DNA of 64,000 nt from an uncultured bacterium (lineage in GTDB: Bacteria; Omnitrophota; Gorgyraeia; Zapsychrales; Aceulaceae), in assembly GCA_937930175.1 (NCBI GenBank), contig CALGLP010000022.1, positions 2,585 through 66,584 on the forward strand, read 5' to 3'. Below, one piece after another: positions 14,095 through 57,519 of this stretch (its first letter is position 1; the number at the start of each line of letters is the position of its first letter). Made by a program: the position numbers and the translations under genes. The notes beneath the pieces are model-generated. The model did no database searches, was not told the origin of the DNA, and worked only from the letters and a program-made list of their open reading frames with translations.

Positions 14095-14295
14095 ATGCCC
14101 GTTGTCATTATCGAAGGACCGCATCTGGAATTGGATGTCAAGAGAGTGCTTGTCAAGGACGTAACTGATGCTTTAGAGAAGGCCTACACCTTTCCTCGCC
14201 CTGCTTATGGGATTATTATCAAAGAGAATGCTTCGGAAAATGTCGCTAACGGCGGGGAGTTGGTCTTTGATCGCAAGAACAAACAAAGGTCTTGA
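14095..14295 (+). CDS. 4-oxalocrotonate tautomerase family protein
   Basis: 66 aa beginning MPVVIIEG (catalytic Pro1). AAGGAG RBS 8 nt upstream. Confidence 0.75.
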   Translation: MPVVIIEGPHLELDVKRVLVKDVTDALEKAYTFPRPAYGIIIKENASENVANGGELVFDRKNKQRS

Positions 14296-14339
14296 GCGTG
14301 CCTAATTTTTAGGCAGAAATCCCGTTGGTTCTTAAGAAA

Positions 14340-14690
14340 TATTACTGAACAGCTTCTTGCTTAAGCGGGGCGTGCTGACATTATCCTTCGCTCACACACC
14401 CTAGCCCCCAGATTTGACTAAAAAGGAACGAAGAAGATCTGAGGGCTAGGAAACTCGCGAGAGGACAATGCCAGCACGCCTTTCAAGCTTCGGTGATCTT
14501 TTAATCAAGACTGTTGCCAAAAAAATGTTCGAGATTGTCTTGCTTCGAGAAGGACGTTGGGCAGGCTTCGCGGGCATGGTCTTTGCCCTGTCTTTGGGCA
14601 AAGGAGCGAAGCCGAACATCGAGCGAAATGTTCCACGCTGGGGAACATAAGCGCTCCTGCGAAAAGAAGACAATCTCGAAAAACAAGTTA
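14340..14690 (-). ncRNA. Candidate structured non-coding RNA (class unidentified), probably transcribed from the minus strand
   Basis: Long GC-richer non-coding gap between the tautomerase gene and carB. Nested helices: 18-bp 14370-14387/14463-14480 and 13-bp 14400-14412/14437-14449, whose only three mismatches (A-C, A-C, C-A on plus) all become G-U wobbles on the minus strand. Further helices: 14-bp 14529-14542/14666-14679, 8-bp 14564-14571/14605-14612, and competing hairpins GAACAT/ATGTTCC/GGAACAT at 14613-14648. Overlapping short ORFs on both strands, none with RBS. No RNase P, tmRNA or SRP signature motifs seen. Confidence 0.4.
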
Positions 14691-14774
14691 GTGTTAATTA
14701 TGAACCAACAAATCAGTTTTTAGGATCGCTCTGTAATATTTGATATGGCCCAATGCGAAATCAATTTTTTAAAT

Positions 14775-14802
14775 TTGTACCCTTTTTATTTTATGCTACA
14801 AT
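14775..14802 (+). promoter_or_regulatory. Putative sigma70 promoter (TTGTAC-16 nt-TACAAT) driving a ~215-nt carB leader
   Basis: -35 TTGTAC at 14775-14780, -10 TACAAT at 14797-14802. The inverted-repeat element copy 1 lies just downstream, before the carB start at 15028. Confidence 0.4.
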
Positions 14803-14833
14803 GCTTCAAATTGAAATTGGAGTACAGAAGAGT

Positions 14834-14943
14834 GCACCCCGTTAGAGAATTGCATACTAATGGTTTTTTTATAAAGGGTAAAGATATCGCCAGCCATGCA
14901 GATCTATCAACGTTATTATCGGCACTCTTCTCTAACGGGGTGC
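14834..14943. repeat. Inverted-repeat element copy 1: perfect 16-bp terminal inverted repeats GCACCCCGTTAGAGAA / TTCTCTAACGGGGTGC enclosing 78 nt, in the carB leader
   Basis: Arms read directly at 14834-14849 and 14928-14943. A second copy with the same 14-15-nt arms is at 56343-56458. Confidence 0.7.
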
Positions 14944-15027
14944 AAGCTGTAAAGCCTTCCCAAAACCTACAACGTCGTGATCAAATAAAAATCATTCTTC
15001 AATTCTTTTTTACAAGAAAGGGTTTCT

Positions 15028-18000
15028 ATGCCAAGGCGTAATGACATTCATAAGATTCTTATTATTGGTTCTGGTCCGATTATCATTGGCCAGGCATGTG
15101 AGTTTGATTATTCTGGCACGCAGGCCTGCAAAGCGCTTCGTAAAGAAGGCTACGAGGTTGTTCTTGTCAATTCTAACCCAGCCACCATTATGACAGATCC
15201 CGAGATGGCGGATAAAACTTATATTGAGCCTTTAACTCTTGAATCTTTAGAGCGCATTATTGCTAAAGAGAGGCCTGATGCGTTGTTGCCTAACTTGGGA
15301 GGGCAAACGGGGCTTAATTTGTCGTCGGGATTATATAAGGCAGGCATTTTGGAGAAATATGGAGTTCAGATCATTGGTGTCAAGGCCGATGCGATTGAAC
15401 GGGGCGAAGATCGCGAGATTTTTAAAGCAACTATGAAGCGGCTTGGTATTCCTGTGCCTCAATCAGAGATCGCTGAGTCTGTGGAAGCTTCAGAAGCTAT
15501 TGCCCAGAGCCTTGGATATCCTGTCGTTATCCGCCCAGCTTATACTATGGGGGGCACAGGCGGCGGGATTGCTTATAACGTTGAAGAATTGCGCGCTATT
15601 GCCTTGCGTGGGCTTACCGTGAGCATTGCCCACCAGGTCTTGATCGAGGAAGCGGTCGTGGGCTGGGAAGAGCTTGAGCTTGAAGTGGTGCGCGATGAAA
15701 AGAATCAAAAGATCACCGTATGTTTTATTGAAAATATTGATGCTATGGGTGTGCACACCGGCGATAGTTTCTGTGCCGCGCCTATGTTGACAGTGCCCGT
15801 TGAACTTCAAAAGAAGATGCAGGATTTTTCGTATAAGATCGTTGATGCCATTGGCGTGGTGGGTGGGACCAATGTCCAATTTGCCCACAATAAAAAAGAT
15901 GGCCGTCTAGTTGTTATTGAAATTAATCCCCGCACCTCACGCTCCTCAGCGCTTGCATCCAAAGCCACAGGATTTCCTATCGCCATGGTCTCGACGCGTC
16001 TGGCTGCAGGATTTACCATGGATGAAATTCCTTATTGGCGCAATGGAACGCTGGAAAAGTATACGCCCAGCGGCGATTATGTGGTGATCAAGTTTGCGCG
16101 ATGGGCTTTTGAAAAATTTCCCCAAGCCAAGGATATTTTAGGAACGCAGATGAAGGCTGTTGGGGAAGTCATGAGTATTGGCAAGACATTTAAAGAGGCC
16201 TTCCAAAAGGCCATTCGTTCGCTTGAAACAAGCCGCTATGGTTTGGGCGGGGCGAAGAACTTTAAAACTCTTTCCGTAGAGCAATTGCGTGAAAAGCTTC
16301 GCAACCCATCGAGTGAACGCATTTTCTTGATGTACGAAGCCTTGCGTCAAGGCCTTGGCGTGGCAGAGCTTCATGCCATGACGCACATTGGCGAATGGTT
16401 TATTAAGGAAATGAAAGATTTGGTGGATTTTGAAGAGGCCATGATCAAAACGTCTTGGGCCAAGCTTTCCGATCAAGATTTTATCAAGGCCAAGGAGTGG
16501 GGATTTTCAGATAGATATCTGGCGGGCTTGTTTGGGGTCAATGAAAAAGATGTGCGCGCCAGACGCTTAAAGCTTGGCAAGATCGCGCGTTACGAAGCTG
16601 TGCCTGTGAGCGGAGTTCAAAATGCCGCGTATTATTATTCAACGTATAGCCCGGGCAAAGACGAGGTCAAGGTTTCAAACAAAAAGAAGATCATGATCTT
16701 AGGCGGTGGCCCAAACCGTATTGGACAGGGGATTGAGTTTGATTATACTTGCGTGCACGCTGCCTTTGCGTTGCGTGAGGCAGGGTACGAAACGATCATG
16801 ATCAATTGTAATCCAGAAACAGTCTCAACCGATTACGATACTTCGGATAAGCTTTATTTTGAGCCGTTAACCGTCGAGGATGTTTTAACAATTTATGAAA
16901 AAGAAAAGCCCGAGGGCGTGATCGTGCAGTTTGGCGGACAAACCCCGCTTAACATCGCAGACCAGCTTAAAGAAAATGGGGTCAAGATTTTAGGTACAAC
17001 GCCGGAAAGCATTGCTTTTGCTGAAGACCGTGAACTCTTCCGTCAGAAAATGATTGACCTTAATATTTTACAGCCAGAGAGTGGCACTGCGCGATCGCTT
17101 GAGGAAGCGTTAGCGATTGCTCAAAAGATCGGCTATCCGTTAATGGTGCGGCCGTCGTTTGTTTTGGGTGGACGCGGCATGGAAATTATTTATGATGAAG
17201 GAATGCTTAAGAAATATGCCATTGAGGCGATCAAGGTGAGCCCCGAACATCCGATGTTGATTGACCGCTTTCTTGAACAAGCCCTGGAATGCGAAGTCGA
17301 TGCCCTTTGTGATGGCAGCGAGACCTTTATTCCGACGGTAATGGAGCATATTGAGTGGGCTGGGGTGCATTCAGGGGATTCCGCGTGTTCAATCCCAAGC
17401 CGCAATATTAGCAATAAGCATTTAGAAGAAATCAAGAAATTTACTGCCATTATTGCCAAAGAGTTAAAGGTTGTCGGGATCATTAATATTCAGTATGCGA
17501 TTTGTCACGATAAGCTTTACATTTTGGAGGCCAATCCGCGGGCCTCGCGCACCGTGCCGATTGTCTCCAAGGTCATGGGGGTTCCCATTGCGCGTATTGC
17601 GACATTCTTAATGTTGGGCAAGAAATTAAAAGACTTTCCGGAAATTAAAAAGATTAAAGCTGTGTTTGTTGGCGTGAAAGAAGCCGTGTTTCCTTTTAAT
17701 ATGTTTCCCGAAGTGGATCCGCTCTTGGGCCCAGAGATGCGTGCCACCGGCGAGGTTATGGGCATTGGCGATACCTTTGGGGCTGCGTTTGCCAAGGCCC
17801 AAGAAGCCGTTGGCTCGAAGCTTCCTTGGGCAGGAACTGTACTTTTGACGATAGCGGAAAAAGACAAGAAATTGCTTTTGTCCATTGCGCGGGAACTTAG
17901 TCGGCTTGGATTTAAGATCCGCGCCACCACAGGGACCAGTGCGTTTTTGGATAAAAATCATATTGTCAACACGCGCATTCAGAAGCTTCATGAAGGCCGT

Positions 18001-18234
18001 CCCAATATCGCGGATGCCATCAAGAATAATGAATTGCAATTGATCATCAATACACCGATTGGCCGCGATAGTAAGCATGATGATAGCTATGTGCGCATGA
18101 TGGCGATTCAGCGCAAAATTCCGTATGTGACATCTATGGCCGCGGCTCAGGCCACGGTTGAGGGGATCGCGGCGATGAAAAAAGGCGATCAAGCGCCAAA
18201 ATCATTACAAGAGCATCATAAGGGTTTAGCTTAA
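15028..18234 (+). CDS. carB: Carbamoyl-phosphate synthase large subunit
   Basis: 1068 aa. N-terminus MPRRNDIHKILIIGSGPIIIGQACEFDYSGTQACKALRKEGYEVVLVNSNPATIMTD, duplicated ATP-grasp halves, C-terminal MGS-like domain. No carA adjacent. Confidence 0.97.
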   Translation: MPRRNDIHKILIIGSGPIIIGQACEFDYSGTQACKALRKEGYEVVLVNSNPATIMTDPEMADKTYIEPLTLESLERIIAKERPDALLPNLGGQTGLNLSSGLYKAGILEKYGVQIIGVKADAIERGEDREIFKATMKRLGIPVPQSEIAESVEASEAIAQSLGYPVVIRPAYTMGGTGGGIAYNVEELRAIALRGLTVSIAHQVLIEEAVVGWEELELEVVRDEKNQKITVCFIENIDAMGVHTGDSFCAAPMLTVPVELQKKMQDFSYKIVDAIGVVGGTNVQFAHNKKDGRLVVIEINPRTSRSSALASKATGFPIAMVSTRLAAGFTMDEIPYWRNGTLEKYTPSGDYVVIKFARWAFEKFPQAKDILGTQMKAVGEVMSIGKTFKEAFQKAIRSLETSRYGLGGAKNFKTLSVEQLREKLRNPSSERIFLMYEALRQGLGVAELHAMTHIGEWFIKEMKDLVDFEEAMIKTSWAKLSDQDFIKAKEWGFSDRYLAGLFGVNEKDVRARRLKLGKIARYEAVPVSGVQNAAYYYSTYSPGKDEVKVSNKKKIMILGGGPNRIGQGIEFDYTCVHAAFALREAGYETIMINCNPETVSTDYDTSDKLYFEPLTVEDVLTIYEKEKPEGVIVQFGGQTPLNIADQLKENGVKILGTTPESIAFAEDRELFRQKMIDLNILQPESGTARSLEEALAIAQKIGYPLMVRPSFVLGGRGMEIIYDEGMLKKYAIEAIKVSPEHPMLIDRFLEQALECEVDALCDGSETFIPTVMEHIEWAGVHSGDSACSIPSRNISNKHLEEIKKFTAIIAKELKVVGIINIQYAICHDKLYILEANPRASRTVPIVSKVMGVPIARIATFLMLGKKLKDFPEIKKIKAVFVGVKEAVFPFNMFPEVDPLLGPEMRATGEVMGIGDTFGAAFAKAQEAVGSKLPWAGTVLLTIAEKDKKLLLSIARELSRLGFKIRATTGTSAFLDKNHIVNTRIQKLHEGRPNIADAIKNNELQLIINTPIGRDSKHDDSYVRMMAIQRKIPYVTSMAAAQATVEGIAAMKKGDQAPKSLQEHHKGLA

Positions 18235-19188: not shown

Positions 19189-20892
19189 ATGTTAAAGGTC
19201 ATGCGGTTTGTTCTTGTCGGAGCCTTTCTTTCTCTTTCTTTTAACATTTGCTTCGCTGAAGTGATCACCCCTGAATCAACCATTACCCGCGTTAGCGTCT
19301 ATCCTGGGTCCGCACGGATCACTCGTCAAGCGCAAGTCAACCTCTCCGAAGGTGAGCATACTATTGTTTTTGACAACATTATCCCGATGATCGATCAGAA
19401 TTCGCTTTCCATTTCTGGGCAGGGAAATGCGCAGGTTAAGCTTTATGGCGCAAGCTTTAAAACAACACAGTTAGCTGTTGTTGCTGATGAGCGCGTCAAG
19501 GATCTTGACGCTCAGATTGAAATATTGGCAGATCAGATTAGCCTTCAGAACATGAAGATGACGATCGTGAATCAGCAAAAAGAGTTTATTAATTCGGTTA
19601 AGTTGACTGCCAACCAGCAAATTCCTGAAGATATTATGACCAAGATGCCGACAGCTCAAGACTTAAGCGGCATTTTTGATTTTATCGGCAATGGATTGCA
19701 GGGTTTAAATGATAAGCAAGAAGCGATTCGCCTTGAGATCCGACGACTTTCTAAAGAGAAAGATGTGCTTGAGCGCGAGATGAGTCAATTGCGCGGAGGC
19801 AATGCACAAAAAGCCAAGCGTTCCATCGAAGTGGAATTGTCATGTCAGGCGGCAGGGGCGTTTACCTTGGAAACATCGTATATGGTCATGGGGCCTGGTT
19901 GGCGTCCGGTTTATGACGCGCGCGCAGGATTTAACCCATCGCAAGTTGAAATGGTGCAATACGCCATGGTGCAGCAGAATACCGGTGAGGATTGGTCCAA
20001 TGTGGATGTTACCTTGTCAACGGTCCAACCTCTCTTGGGCGGCCGCATGCCGTATGTGGATTCGTGGATTGTGAGGCCTGCTGAGACTAGAAGGTCCGAG
20101 GGTGGGATGTTAGGTAGGGCTTTAAAAGGATCACTTCGCGAAGCTGCTGTGCAATATGAGGCGTATTCTGATTCTAACGGGGTGAAACAGTTTGCCACGC
20201 CCACGCAGAACATCGAAACAAAAGCTGAGATTAATTACGCAAGTGTTGTTCAAAAAGGTGTTTCGGTTGTTTTTAACATTGCGCGGCCAATCATGCTAGC
20301 TTCTGATGGAACCGAGCGGAAATTTCCTGTGACAACGCAAATGCTCAAAGCGGATTATGAATACGCAACCTTCCCTAAGGTGGCTAGCTTGGCCTACCTT
20401 GGCAGCCGCGTGATCAATAGCGACGAGCTAAGTTTTTTGTCCGGGGAAGTGAATTTGTTTGTCGAAGGCGATTATATTGGAAAGTCCAGCATTGATAATG
20501 TTGGGCCCGGCGAAACCTTTGATCTTTATTTGGGCGCGGATGAAAATGTCAAGGTTAAGCGTGAGATGATCAAGAAGGAAATAGACAAGACCTTGTTCGC
20601 CAACATTGATGCCATGAATCGTAAGGTGACGTATACTTACAAGCTCACGGTTGAAAATTATAAGTCCCGAGACATTAAGGTCAAACTTTTTGAATCCATG
20701 CCTACGGCTCAAGACGACCGCATCAAGACCAAAGTCTTTGACGTTAGCGATGAGCCTAGCCAGAAGGACTGGAAAGATCGTCAAGGTGTTTGGCTCTGGG
20801 AATTTTCATTGAAGCCTAAGGAGAAGAAAGAGATTCGTTATTCTTTTGTGATCGATCATCCTAAGAATCTTCAACTTCCGGAGGTTGATTAA
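19189..20892 (+). CDS. Secreted DUF4140/DUF4139-type protein (mucoidy-inhibitor-A-like family) with central coiled coil
   Basis: Signal peptide, N-terminal VSVYPGSARITRQAQVNLSEGEHTIVF block, central coiled coil, large C-terminal beta-rich domain. Family assignment from recollection of the architecture. Confidence 0.5.
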   Translation: MLKVMRFVLVGAFLSLSFNICFAEVITPESTITRVSVYPGSARITRQAQVNLSEGEHTIVFDNIIPMIDQNSLSISGQGNAQVKLYGASFKTTQLAVVADERVKDLDAQIEILADQISLQNMKMTIVNQQKEFINSVKLTANQQIPEDIMTKMPTAQDLSGIFDFIGNGLQGLNDKQEAIRLEIRRLSKEKDVLEREMSQLRGGNAQKAKRSIEVELSCQAAGAFTLETSYMVMGPGWRPVYDARAGFNPSQVEMVQYAMVQQNTGEDWSNVDVTLSTVQPLLGGRMPYVDSWIVRPAETRRSEGGMLGRALKGSLREAAVQYEAYSDSNGVKQFATPTQNIETKAEINYASVVQKGVSVVFNIARPIMLASDGTERKFPVTTQMLKADYEYATFPKVASLAYLGSRVINSDELSFLSGEVNLFVEGDYIGKSSIDNVGPGETFDLYLGADENVKVKREMIKKEIDKTLFANIDAMNRKVTYTYKLTVENYKSRDIKVKLFESMPTAQDDRIKTKVFDVSDEPSQKDWKDRQGVWLWEFSLKPKEKKEIRYSFVIDHPKNLQLPEVD

Positions 20893-56155: not shown

Positions 56156-56320
56156 AAAAATGCTCCTTTTTGGTTGGTTTTCATTTATTATAGGTGAATT
56201 TGATGGCTTGTCTAGATGATTTATGAAATAATTCTCTCTCCTTTTATTACTAGATTTGAAATCGATTGACAAAAGTTTTATTTAACCATACCATAAATTA
56301 TTAAACATATGGAGGAGACG

Positions 56321-56563
56321 ATGACGCAGGACAAAAACCCTATTCACCCCGTTAGAGAATTAAATGATTCGGCGGTTGGTGTTGACAAGAAGGTTCCACT
56401 TGATGGCGAGTCACCCCTAATGGGAAATCTACGGCTGACGTATTTCTCTAACGGGGTAAAGAAATTTTTTAAAGATTTGTTGGAAAAGCTGGACCAAAAG
56501 ATGCTCGAGAAAGCAAAGACAAAGCCTTGCTGCGCAAAAAGCAAGCCTAAGGATGCCTCGTGA
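56321..56563 (+). CDS. Possible small leader ORF (80 aa) spanning inverted-repeat element copy 2; coding status doubtful
   Basis: GGAGGAG RBS before ATG 56321. C-terminus ...KTKPCCAKSKPKDAS. Its stop overlaps the permease start. Similarity to the analogous ORF at copy 1 is limited to the inverted-repeat arms, so the conservation is at nucleotide level. Confidence 0.2.
   Translation: MTQDKNPIHPVRELNDSAVGVDKKVPLDGESPLMGNLRLTYFSNGVKKFFKDLLEKLDQKMLEKAKTKPCCAKSKPKDAS
56343..56458. repeat. Inverted-repeat element copy 2 (arms TCACCCCGTTAGAGAATT / ATTTCTCTAACGGGGTA, enclosing about 84 nt) in the leader of the ArsP-like permease gene
   Basis: Left arm 56345-56359 and right arm 56444-56456, identical over 14-15 nt to copy 1. 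Interior unrelated to copy 1. Confidence 0.7.
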
Positions 56564-57519
56564 TCAAACCCATCATTGATTGGTTTTTTTATTCGCTGTT
56601 TCAGCTTGACCCTGAATCTCACGTCGTGGGAGCGCTGCATTTTTTTATTTATGACACGATTAAGATCATGGTGCTTCTTTTTGTGATGATTTCTTTTTTG
56701 GGTTTCTTGCGATCGTTTCTTGATCAAAAACGTATTAAGCAATGGCTGAGCCACAATTCCTTTTTTGCTAGCGTCTATGCCGCGATATTTGGCGCGATTA
56801 CGCCTTTTTGTTCGTGCTCCTCGATCCCCATTTTTTTAAGTTTTGTCAAAATGGGCATTCCTCTGGGCGTGATGTTTTCTTTTCTGATTACTTCCCCGAT
56901 GATTAACGAGTATCTGGTTGTTCTGATGTTAATTTTTTTTGGTTGGAAAATCACCTTGGTTTATGTTGTGAGTGGCATGGTCATCGGTATTGGCTCAGGC
57001 CTTATCCTAGGACGGATGAATCTTGAGAAATACTTGGAGCGAGATCTTTTTTTAACAGCAGAGGAGTCTCAAGAAGAAAAGGGGCCGAAGACGTTAGGAG
57101 AGCGGATCAACTTTGGTCTGGGCGAGGCCAAGACCATTTTGGCGCGGCTTTGGATATGGATTATGGTTGGTGTTGGGTTGGGTGCTTTGATCCATAATTA
57201 TATTCCTGAAGAAGCGATTCATGCTGCGATTAATAAAACAGGGCCATTTTCTGTGCCGATCGCCGTGGCCTTGGGTGTGCCGATGTATGGCAGCTGTGCC
57301 GCGATTGTTCCGATTGCCGTGGCCCTTTTTCACAAAGGTGTTCCTTTAGGGACAGCGCTTAGCTTTATGATGGCGACAAGCGCCTTGAGTCTTCCTGAGA
57401 TGGTTATTCTCCGTCGAGCCATGAAATTAAAGTTGATCATTATCTTTTTTGCCATTACGACCTTGGGAATTATTTTTACAGGGTATCTCTTTAATATTTT
57501 GCAAAAGGTGTTAATATAA
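56560..57519 (+). CDS. COG0701/DUF318-family permease (ArsP-like), with TPFCSCS motif
   Basis: 319 aa polytopic. ITPFCSCSSIPIFLSFVKMGIPLGVMFSFLITSPMINEYLVVLML matches the predicted-permease (ArsP) family. Confidence 0.75.
   Translation: MIKPIIDWFFYSLFQLDPESHVVGALHFFIYDTIKIMVLLFVMISFLGFLRSFLDQKRIKQWLSHNSFFASVYAAIFGAITPFCSCSSIPIFLSFVKMGIPLGVMFSFLITSPMINEYLVVLMLIFFGWKITLVYVVSGMVIGIGSGLILGRMNLEKYLERDLFLTAEESQEEKGPKTLGERINFGLGEAKTILARLWIWIMVGVGLGALIHNYIPEEAIHAAINKTGPFSVPIAVALGVPMYGSCAAIVPIAVALFHKGVPLGTALSFMMATSALSLPEMVILRRAMKLKLIIIFFAITTLGIIFTGYLFNILQKVLI

Follow-up and report, generated by a model that had tools for sequence, protein, structure and literature searches.

Two inverted-repeat copies near carB and an ArsP permease gene of an Omnitrophota contig, very probably members of a family of hairpin-forming miniature mobile elements

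Genes and repeats of the window

The window analyzed here, a stretch of 64,000 nucleotides of contig CALGLP010000022.1 from an uncultured Omnitrophota bacterium, contains two copies of a short repeat with terminal inverted arms. Copy 1 precedes carB, encoding the large subunit of carbamoyl-phosphate synthase, and copy 2 lies in a small open reading frame (ORF) in front of an ArsP-type permease gene. Based on comparison with relatives and with similar loci in other genomes, we propose that both repeats very probably represent a miniature mobile DNA element that forms hairpins and is non-autonomous, and that the two copies are fixed. The nearest proteins to the permease and CarB of the window come from metagenome-assembled genomes (MAGs) of Omnitrophota, including Candidatus Aceula. 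The features concerned are as follows.

14775..14802, plus strand: carB promoter, TTGTAC, 16-nt spacer, TG-n-TACAAT, upstream of copy 1 (from conservation of the -10 sequence)
14832..14944, no strand assigned: copy 1 with both flanking direct repeats, in the carB 5' untranslated region (UTR), non-coding
14832..14836, no strand assigned: left direct repeat GTGCA of copy 1, a copy of the target site (from the sequence)
14837..14849, no strand assigned: left arm of copy 1, CCCCGTTAGAGAA (exact match)
14850..14927, no strand assigned: interior of copy 1, 78 nt, lineage-specific (unrelated to about 120 other copies)
14928..14940, no strand assigned: right arm of copy 1, TTCTCTAACGGGG (exact match)
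14940..14944, no strand assigned: right direct repeat GTGCA of copy 1, with G14940 common to the arm (from the sequence)
15028..18234, plus strand: carB, for the large subunit of carbamoyl-phosphate synthase, downstream of copy 1 (identified by CPSase Pfam domains and source names)
56266..56294, plus strand: promoter-like TTGACA-17-TACCAT upstream of the small ORF (scan; TTGACA conserved in relatives)
56321..56563, plus strand: small ORF hosting copy 2, 80 aa in the window and about 42 aa in relatives, its stop overlapping the permease start (alignment with relatives)
56345..56458, plus strand: copy 2, 114 nt or 38 codons, an in-frame insertion in the small ORF (alignment with three relatives that have no insertion)
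56347..56359, no strand assigned: left arm of copy 2 (exact match)
56444..56456, no strand assigned: right arm of copy 2 (exact match)
56560..57519, plus strand: ArsP_1/YraQ-type permease gene, translationally coupled to the small ORF (PF03773)

The 13-mer CCCCGTTAGAGAA occurs at 14837 and 56347 and its reverse complement at 14928 and 56444, giving four exact sites in two inverted pairs that are spaced 78 and 84 nt; no further match exists in the window. With a 17-mer and up to three mismatches, four sites were found versus 0.11 expected, and none of 100 shuffles gave four. A first-pass annotation, made from the sequence alone, had reported a repeat with terminal inverted repeats at two sites, and these counts bear it out. 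Its description of identical arms around unrelated interiors of 78 and 84 nt was likewise confirmed by comparison. Both copies are spanned by plus-strand ORFs that read HPVREL...FSNGV, from which conservation at the nucleotide level had been deduced, correctly in our judgment.

In the case of copy 1 the arms are as described in that annotation, but the repeat reaches further outward, into the GTGCA direct repeat at 14832-14836 and 14940-14944. Together with its flanks, copy 1 forms a perfect 17-bp closing stem, in which TGCACCCCGTTAGAGAA (14833-14849) pairs with 14928-14944, and its folding has a z-score of -4.5. Copy 2, with boundaries that are uncertain by about 3 nt, is closed by a 14-bp stem around its 84-nt interior (z = -4.8). 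Its flanks, TTCAC and GTAAA, do not form a direct repeat, and the same pair flanks a copy at another locus (L034).

A search of the window for further copies yielded nothing beyond one doubtful single arm. This lone arm-like TTCTAACGGGG at 20172-20182 is read in frame (..SDSNGVK..) in a DUF4139 gene, and a partner arm is not evident. Either decay of a copy within the gene or chance could account for it, about 0.1 such 10-mers being expected.

Occupied and empty orthologous sites

For copy 1, the region between the upstream tautomerase gene and carB was compared with that of five relatives whose CarB is 89-92% identical (L130, L131, L132, L133 and L141). The extended -10 sequence TGnTACAAT (14794-14802) is invariant in the alignment with four relatives and also present in L141, although a simple consensus scan does not call the carB promoter. 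Since this conserved -10 lies about 30 nt upstream, copy 1 is placed in the carB 5' UTR, between promoter and gene as the first-pass annotation had it, and, being downstream of a promoter, it should be transcribed.

The presence/absence comparison suggested in the same annotation was informative for both copies. L130 carries the orthologous copy 1 in identical place and orientation (1306-1418), while L131, L132, L133 and L141 have an empty, uninterrupted site with one copy of the repeat (e.g., AAGAGTGAGCGTTG). The single related stretch at the empty site of L132 is GTGAG; an empty copy 1 site would read GAGTGCAAGCTG. Relatives without the element retain the same promoter and leader. The CarB tree has a star-like shape that does not clearly join L130 to the window as its sister, and the distribution therefore requires either two gains or precise losses. 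Compared with L130, the window is identical at 23 of 24 arm positions, at 77% of the interior, at 71-72% of the flanks and at 51-55% of the carB third positions. The arms are under sequence-level constraint. The reading frame across copy 1 is closed by a TGA in L130, and copy 1 is thus non-coding. A strain with 99% identical CarB (L140) is uninformative on strain polymorphism, as its contig stops in the 5' part of carB and the copy 1 region is missing.

The flank repeats of the two orthologous copies differ in parallel, GTGCA/GTGCA in the window versus GTGAA/GTGAA in L130. The change to GTGCA makes the window flanks self-complementary and the stem longer, which suggests selection or mismatch correction in an extruded hairpin, or else independent insertions at slightly different orthologous targets. 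A second such case concerns the repeats around a nested hairpin, GCCAG/GCCAG in L066 versus GCAAG/GCAAG in L107, where stem pairing offers no explanation. No single model covers both cases.

For copy 2, three relatives with a permease 78-84% identical (L127, L128 and L129) contain the small ORF and have no element. Their ORF encodes M..KENP(I/V).KKFF..KLDQK.LEKAK...CC.K.K, ending with a Cys-Cys motif, and the ORF of the window equals theirs plus 114 nt in frame; an empty copy 2 site would read CCTATT(GTA)AAGAAATTT. The first-pass annotation had placed copy 2 in a 5' leader. The promoter it named at 56266-56294 is found by scan, but the leader is not untranslated, as copy 2 sits inside this conserved small ORF. 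Twelve contigs encode the identical 80-aa product (listed for 8 places, from 8 sample accessions), which has no other homologue among 5.8 billion proteins. An ORF of about 42 aa that overlaps the start codon of an ArsP_1/YraQ permease gene is found in several Omnitrophota, and its product matches no Pfam or NCBIfam family.

A family defined by its ends

One genome per species was scanned with the pattern CCCGTTAGAGAA-N60-90-TTCTCTAACGGG, with exact arms required. Paired ends were found at 118 or more loci, all in MAGs, from at least 12 phyla. Carriers comprise Omnitrophota; many lineages of Patescibacteria, including a closed Wolfebacteria genome (CP011209.1); Nitrospirota and Thermodesulfovibrionia; Planctomycetota, including Scalinduaceae; Elusimicrobia, WOR-3, Stahlbacteria, Ratteibacteria and Auribacterota; and Deltaproteobacteria (one deltaproteobacterium), Bdellovibrionales and Gammaproteobacteria.

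Four scans of the 2.9 million viral contigs of IMG/VR, with three arm spacings and the junction form, gave 0 matches, and BLAST of a canonical copy against PLSDB and INPHARED gave none. Rfam searches of the window (gathering threshold), of ten canonical loci and of 14250-15060 at E<=1 returned nothing except two unrelated tRNAs, and the translated element peptides matched no Pfam or NCBIfam family. In the literature, the arm sequences were unmatched as strings, keyword searches gave no description of the element family, and a survey of repetitive extragenic palindromic (REP) sequences and related repeats (PMC3733652) does not describe it. [quoted passage not shown]

Members end in 13-bp inverted repeats, CCCCGTTAGAGAA ... 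TTCTCTAACGGGG, around a loop of 4 nt to about 100 nt, and range from bare 30-nt hairpins up to about 125 nt. About half of the copies share a canonical interior, the commonest form, which is 108-111 nt long and contains three hairpins. Its layout is GTAAA-C CCCGTTAGAGAAC-loop-GTTCTCTAACGG, followed by the internal hairpins H2, GATGGTGGC-nTTAAA-CCACCATC, and H3, CCGCCGAC-TnAA-GTCGGCGG, and closed by C TTTCTCTAACGGG-GTAAA. Over 38 copies the internal hairpins are 88-90% paired, versus at most 51% when the partners are slid, and show compensatory changes (GC:17/AU:16 at one pair, CG:23/UA:12 at another). A.C mismatches outnumber G.T mismatches (69 vs 40), an excess which weakly favors the TTTAC-reading strand as the strand that folds. 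In neighboring variant copies the outer 10 bp or so of the stem, CCCCGTTAGA / TCTAACGGGG, are fixed, and the inner stem varies with compensation (GAGAC/GTCTC, GAAAA/TTTTC, GAGAT/ATCTC).

Non-canonical interiors form further subfamilies and many singletons, and both window copies are among these. Their interiors resemble the canonical ones no more than shuffled sequences do and fold differently; it is only by their ends that these two copies are members of the wider family. Other copies are bare hairpins with a 4-5-nt loop, and some are nested within other copies.

Flank statistics were drawn from about 120 copies at these loci. Identical 4-nt flanks were found for 97 of 120 copies, and 96 copies oriented alike give the profile (A)GTAAA | C...G | GTAAA-N, with no conservation further out. 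The 5-nt direct repeat is GTAAA in most copies, or TTTAC on the opposite strand. Variants, including GTAAG, GTGAA, GTCAA, GTGCA (window copy 1) and GCCAG, mostly match on both sides. In all 38 aligned canonical copies the repeat is of the GTAAA type, never TTTAC, in one orientation relative to the interior. Matching flanks in combination with a single orientation indicate that the element occupies a short target that is asymmetric, and that it duplicates this target while facing one way only.

Tandem elements share one flank repeat (repeat-element-repeat-element-repeat), which implies that new copies are able to land on the end repeat of a resident copy. In two tandem arrays, L084 3356-3598 and L026 698-870, a single GTTTAC / GTAAGC separates the elements.

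Within two MAGs that each hold at least 10 copies, the interiors are 93% and 89% identical (medians), while the 60-nt flanks are 56% identical, the background level.

Copies inside and beside genes

The placement of copies is inconsistent: they lie within genes, just past stop codons, or between genes. Fifteen are located in ORFs that continue for 60 aa or more to either side of the copy, and all 15 insertion lengths are multiples of 3. When the element plus one repeat was excised in silico, the hosts were identified as proB (glutamate 5-kinase), uvrD, a MiaB-like radical-SAM gene, a family-2 glycosyltransferase gene (GT2), gdh and glyS. Pfam domains cross the junction in 5 of these 6 hosts; the junction of the sixth, the MiaB-like gene, separates two domains. 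Depending on orientation, the inserts are read as FTPLEK...SSLTGF or as NPVRE...FSNGV (e.g., TPLEKAADFSR, HPVRELNDSAVGVDK), and the third frame meets TAG/TAA in the arms. Such in-frame copies are the expected residue of selection against disruptive insertions. That copies in genes are nearly always open and a multiple of 3 in length argues for their translation and against splicing; intron-like removal was considered and rejected on this ground. The gdh gene of a Sungbacteria contig (L057) has two inserts, a 35-aa copy reading APLEN...SLTG and, near the N-terminus, a shorter PVRS...TSNGV that looks like a family member with variant arms.

Among copies that break an ORF restored by excision, only the one at L034 interrupts a convincing gene, likely a pseudogene; the restored ORFs at L042, L098, L036, L100 and L001 look spurious. 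About 14 intergenic copies begin exactly at the TAA stop codon of a gene, inside G-TAA-A; insertion at this point preserves the upstream ORF.

Probable mobility and candidate mechanisms

The family has inserted at orthologous sites that are empty in relatives, has duplicated its target and has amplified recently within genomes; its copies survive in frame in real genes, essential ones among them, and keep conserved internal hairpins. Mobility is supported by the near-identical interiors between flanks at background level, by presence and absence in relatives and by the target duplication. Consequently, a MITE-like mobile element is the only one of the three roles offered by the first-pass annotation that finds support, given presence/absence in relatives, dispersed near-identical copies and direct repeats around 97 of 120 of them. 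We envisage that a protein supplied in trans would recognize the outer 10 bp or so of the stem and would work on a folded single strand. In the window, copy 1 is present in the carB 5' UTR as a 17-bp stem, and copy 2 adds 38 residues to the small protein coupled to the ArsP permease. Any effect of the window copies on expression is a by-product, as nothing points to a dedicated function.

Several observations weigh against this interpretation. No transposase or recombinase gene is common to the roughly 800 kb of flanks, and all-against-all clustering of 1297 flanking ORFs gave no recurrent one; translation of the element itself, or repeat domains, probably produced the largest cluster as an artefact. 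No full-length autonomous element with these ends was found in the 118 8-kb flanks, IMG/VR, PLSDB or INPHARED, and mobility in trans is accordingly what we infer. The sole Y1/HUH gene in the 118 loci, at L034, is interrupted by a copy instead of being flanked by arms. About 20% of the copies have no matching flanks, including copy 2 and L034 (TTCAC...GTAAA). DDE MITEs do not typically keep to one orientation at an asymmetric target, nor do HUH elements typically have a flank that is duplicated and co-varies. The scan demanded exact arms, and the invariance of the ends is thus partly built in; exact 24-base matches across a dozen phyla are notable despite this search bias. Finally, the analysis covers 64 kb of this genome, where both copies have unique interiors, and the claim of activity does not extend to this organism.

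The gene at L034 (2078-3126) encodes an IS200-like Y1 (HUH) transposase with a C-terminal helix-turn-helix, split by a 110-nt frame-shifting copy whose excision restores a 313-aa ORF. A tblastn search with this transposase matched L034 only.

As to the enzyme, we tentatively rank first a transposase with a 5-nt staggered target cut and an unusual asymmetry. The inverted ends and the duplication fit a DDE-type MITE, the fixed orientation at an asymmetric target does not. Bacterial MITEs such as Correia/NEMIS, RUP, ERIC and Nezha resemble the element in their size of about 100 bp, terminal inverted repeats, target duplication, absence of own coding capacity and frequent co-transcription with neighbors. 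In contrast to them, the element has no known parent insertion sequence (IS) with its ends, all 38 canonical copies lie in one orientation at the target, and the interior is almost arbitrary, down to a 4-nt loop. The element thus fits the MITE description except for its orientation and the missing parent element.

Ranked second, and rather doubtful, is an IS200/IS605- or RAYT-like HUH single-strand transposase (RAYT, REP-associated tyrosine transposase) with insertion 3' of TTTAC. The repeat would then be, with the same low likelihood, an element of the REP/REPIN type or a palindrome-associated transposable element (PATE), moved as single-stranded DNA by a Y1 HUH transposase (RAYT or IS200/IS605 TnpA), inserted 3' of TTTAC and ending in its own TTTAC. 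A stem-loop architecture that accepts any loop, insertion that is strand- and orientation-specific beside TTTAC, the one TTTAC common to tandem copies and the mismatch excess in favor of a folded TTTAC strand all agree with such a mechanism. TTTAC also resembles TTAC, the target of IS608. As in PATEs, placement is strand-specific, most copies having TTTAC directly 5' of the element on one of the strands, and depends on a hairpin; PATEs, however, have neither terminal inverted repeats nor target duplications, and the element has both. Where the flanks deviate, the two sides mostly carry the same variant (GTAAG/GTAAG, GTGAA/GTGAA, GCCAG/GCCAG), which argues for a true target duplication and not for a cleavage site borne by the element. 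Moreover, a Y1 gene is present at only 1 of 118 loci.

REPs are 20-40-nt palindromes with a GTAG (or CGTC) tag at one end, the tags being inverted in REPINs; they supply stop codons and sit in uvrD and other repair genes, and RAYT/TIRYT genes have been described (PMC3733652). The present element shares with them short hairpins, a conserved tag beside the stem that often gives the upstream stop codon, and copies in uvrD, which speaks for the HUH mechanism. Yet its tag is GTAAA instead of GTAG/CGTC, and it flanks the element on both sides in direct repetition, co-varying with the target, where REPINs have GTAG...CTAC in inverted order. Unlike REP sequences, which are species-specific, this sequence is common to at least 12 phyla, and among the 118 loci no RAYT gene is flanked by the arms.

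Two further enzymes stand level with each other as improbable candidates, a site-specific recombinase with a 5-6-nt overlap and insertion mediated by a reverse transcriptase. In the former case, the joined ends TTCTCTAACGGG-GTAAAC-CCCGTTAGAGAA would be a tyrosine-recombinase-type core with 12-13-bp inverted arms and a 5-6-bp overlap, integrating at sites that share the overlap like an attC or dif-like module, a reading we hold to be equally improbable. The junction matches the geometry of lox, FRT and dif-type cores and is present in tandem arrays, and orientation specificity and identical flanking repeats would follow naturally. Opposed to this, steric constraints make a circle of 35-120 bp implausible for double-stranded DNA, singleton interiors are found with many different flanks, and no cassette arrays or shared integrase genes are found in the examined flanks. 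The element also resembles integron attC sites in its conserved stem, a variable center of similar length and GTT/AAC boxes. The order of the boxes, however, is GTTAGAG ... CTCTAAC on both strands, opposite in polarity to the R''/R' order of attC (RYYYAAC ... GTTRRRY) and one base off consensus, the seventh base being G/C and not Y/R. Copies are dispersed singly rather than in cassette arrays, the two in the window lying 41 kb apart. The caution with which the first-pass annotation treated this likeness was well placed.

That the repeats are cis-regulatory RNA stems in 5' leaders, binding a protein or ligand or acting as an RNase III or stability element to control carB and the ArsP operon, is very unlikely. 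Copy 1 lies downstream of a conserved promoter, both copies form long stems (z about -4.5 to -4.8), and the interior of copy 1 is more similar to that of L130 than the third positions of carB are. Nevertheless, four relatives with the same carB promoter and leader have no element, copy 2 lies in a coding sequence and is missing from three relatives, and elsewhere the element occurs in any context. Unlike a riboswitch or leader RNA, its interiors are unrelated, most orthologous leaders have no element, and Rfam gives no match even at E<=1. The remaining role in the first-pass annotation, that of half-sites of an operator bound by a looping transcription factor, can practically be dismissed: identical 13-bp sites do occur near two promoters, but the arm spacing varies from 4 to about 100 nt, copies lie within coding regions in at least 12 phyla, and the flanking direct repeats and presence/absence variation do not agree with such sites.

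Returning to a miniature mobile element, its in-frame copies invite comparison with RPEs, palindromic repeats of about 100-150 bp that are found both between genes and, in frame, within genes for functional proteins (PMC3733652). The element too is found in frame in functional genes (proB, uvrD, GT2, gdh, glyS, and between domains in the MiaB-like gene). It differs in that its peptides match no NCBIfam or Pfam family, that it is present in at least 12 phyla versus one genus for RPEs, that it has a defined 5-nt target and repeat, and that it shrinks to a 30-nt hairpin. RPE-domain models are included in the NCBIfam library.

No well-studied mechanism accounts for a bare hairpin that is combined with a true duplication and a 5-nt target lacking symmetry. 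The HUH mechanism accounts for hairpin dependence, strand specificity, TTTAC and tandem arrays, not for the matching variant flanks and terminal inverted repeats; a tyrosine recombinase accounts for the core-like junction, not for circles of 35-120 bp and the variety of flanks. A speculative, rather unlikely possibility is a new class of mobile DNA that is neither a DDE MITE nor a RAYT-driven REP. It would consist of a minimal hairpin (at least 30 nt) inserted strand-specifically at GTAAA with a 5-nt duplication, moved by a conserved and unrecognized enzyme common to Patescibacteria, Omnitrophota, Nitrospirota, Planctomycetota and others, or spread by a vector of very broad host range, and routinely translated as an insert of about 38 residues in essential proteins.

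The distribution indicates machinery, or a vector, that crosses phylum boundaries. For annotation, the element matters as it creates spurious or extended ORFs and adds about 38 residues to real proteins; it probably also breaks assemblies. The in-frame copies in glyS, proB, uvrD and gdh represent natural experiments on the tolerance of proteins to insertion. The two promoter-proximal repeats of the window should not be taken as the signal of a shared regulon.

A structured segment upstream of the carB promoter

Between the tautomerase gene and the carB promoter lies a segment of about 439 nt (14312-14750) that is absent from this intergenic region in four relatives. It folds unusually well, with z = -10.7 for the minus and -6.9 for the plus strand. 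Rfam gave no match to the segment at E<=1, neither a tRNA nor a tmRNA was detected in it, and comparison with plasmids and phages gave nothing. Homologues of its core occur at unrelated loci on Omnitrophota-like contigs (L030, L134, L138/L139, and more weakly L136 and L137), and two of them adjoin genes for UvrD-type helicases. An alignment of four sequences has 52-56 consensus pairs, 14-16 of which show compensatory double changes. The segment is a candidate for an unnamed structured RNA, which may be encoded on either strand.

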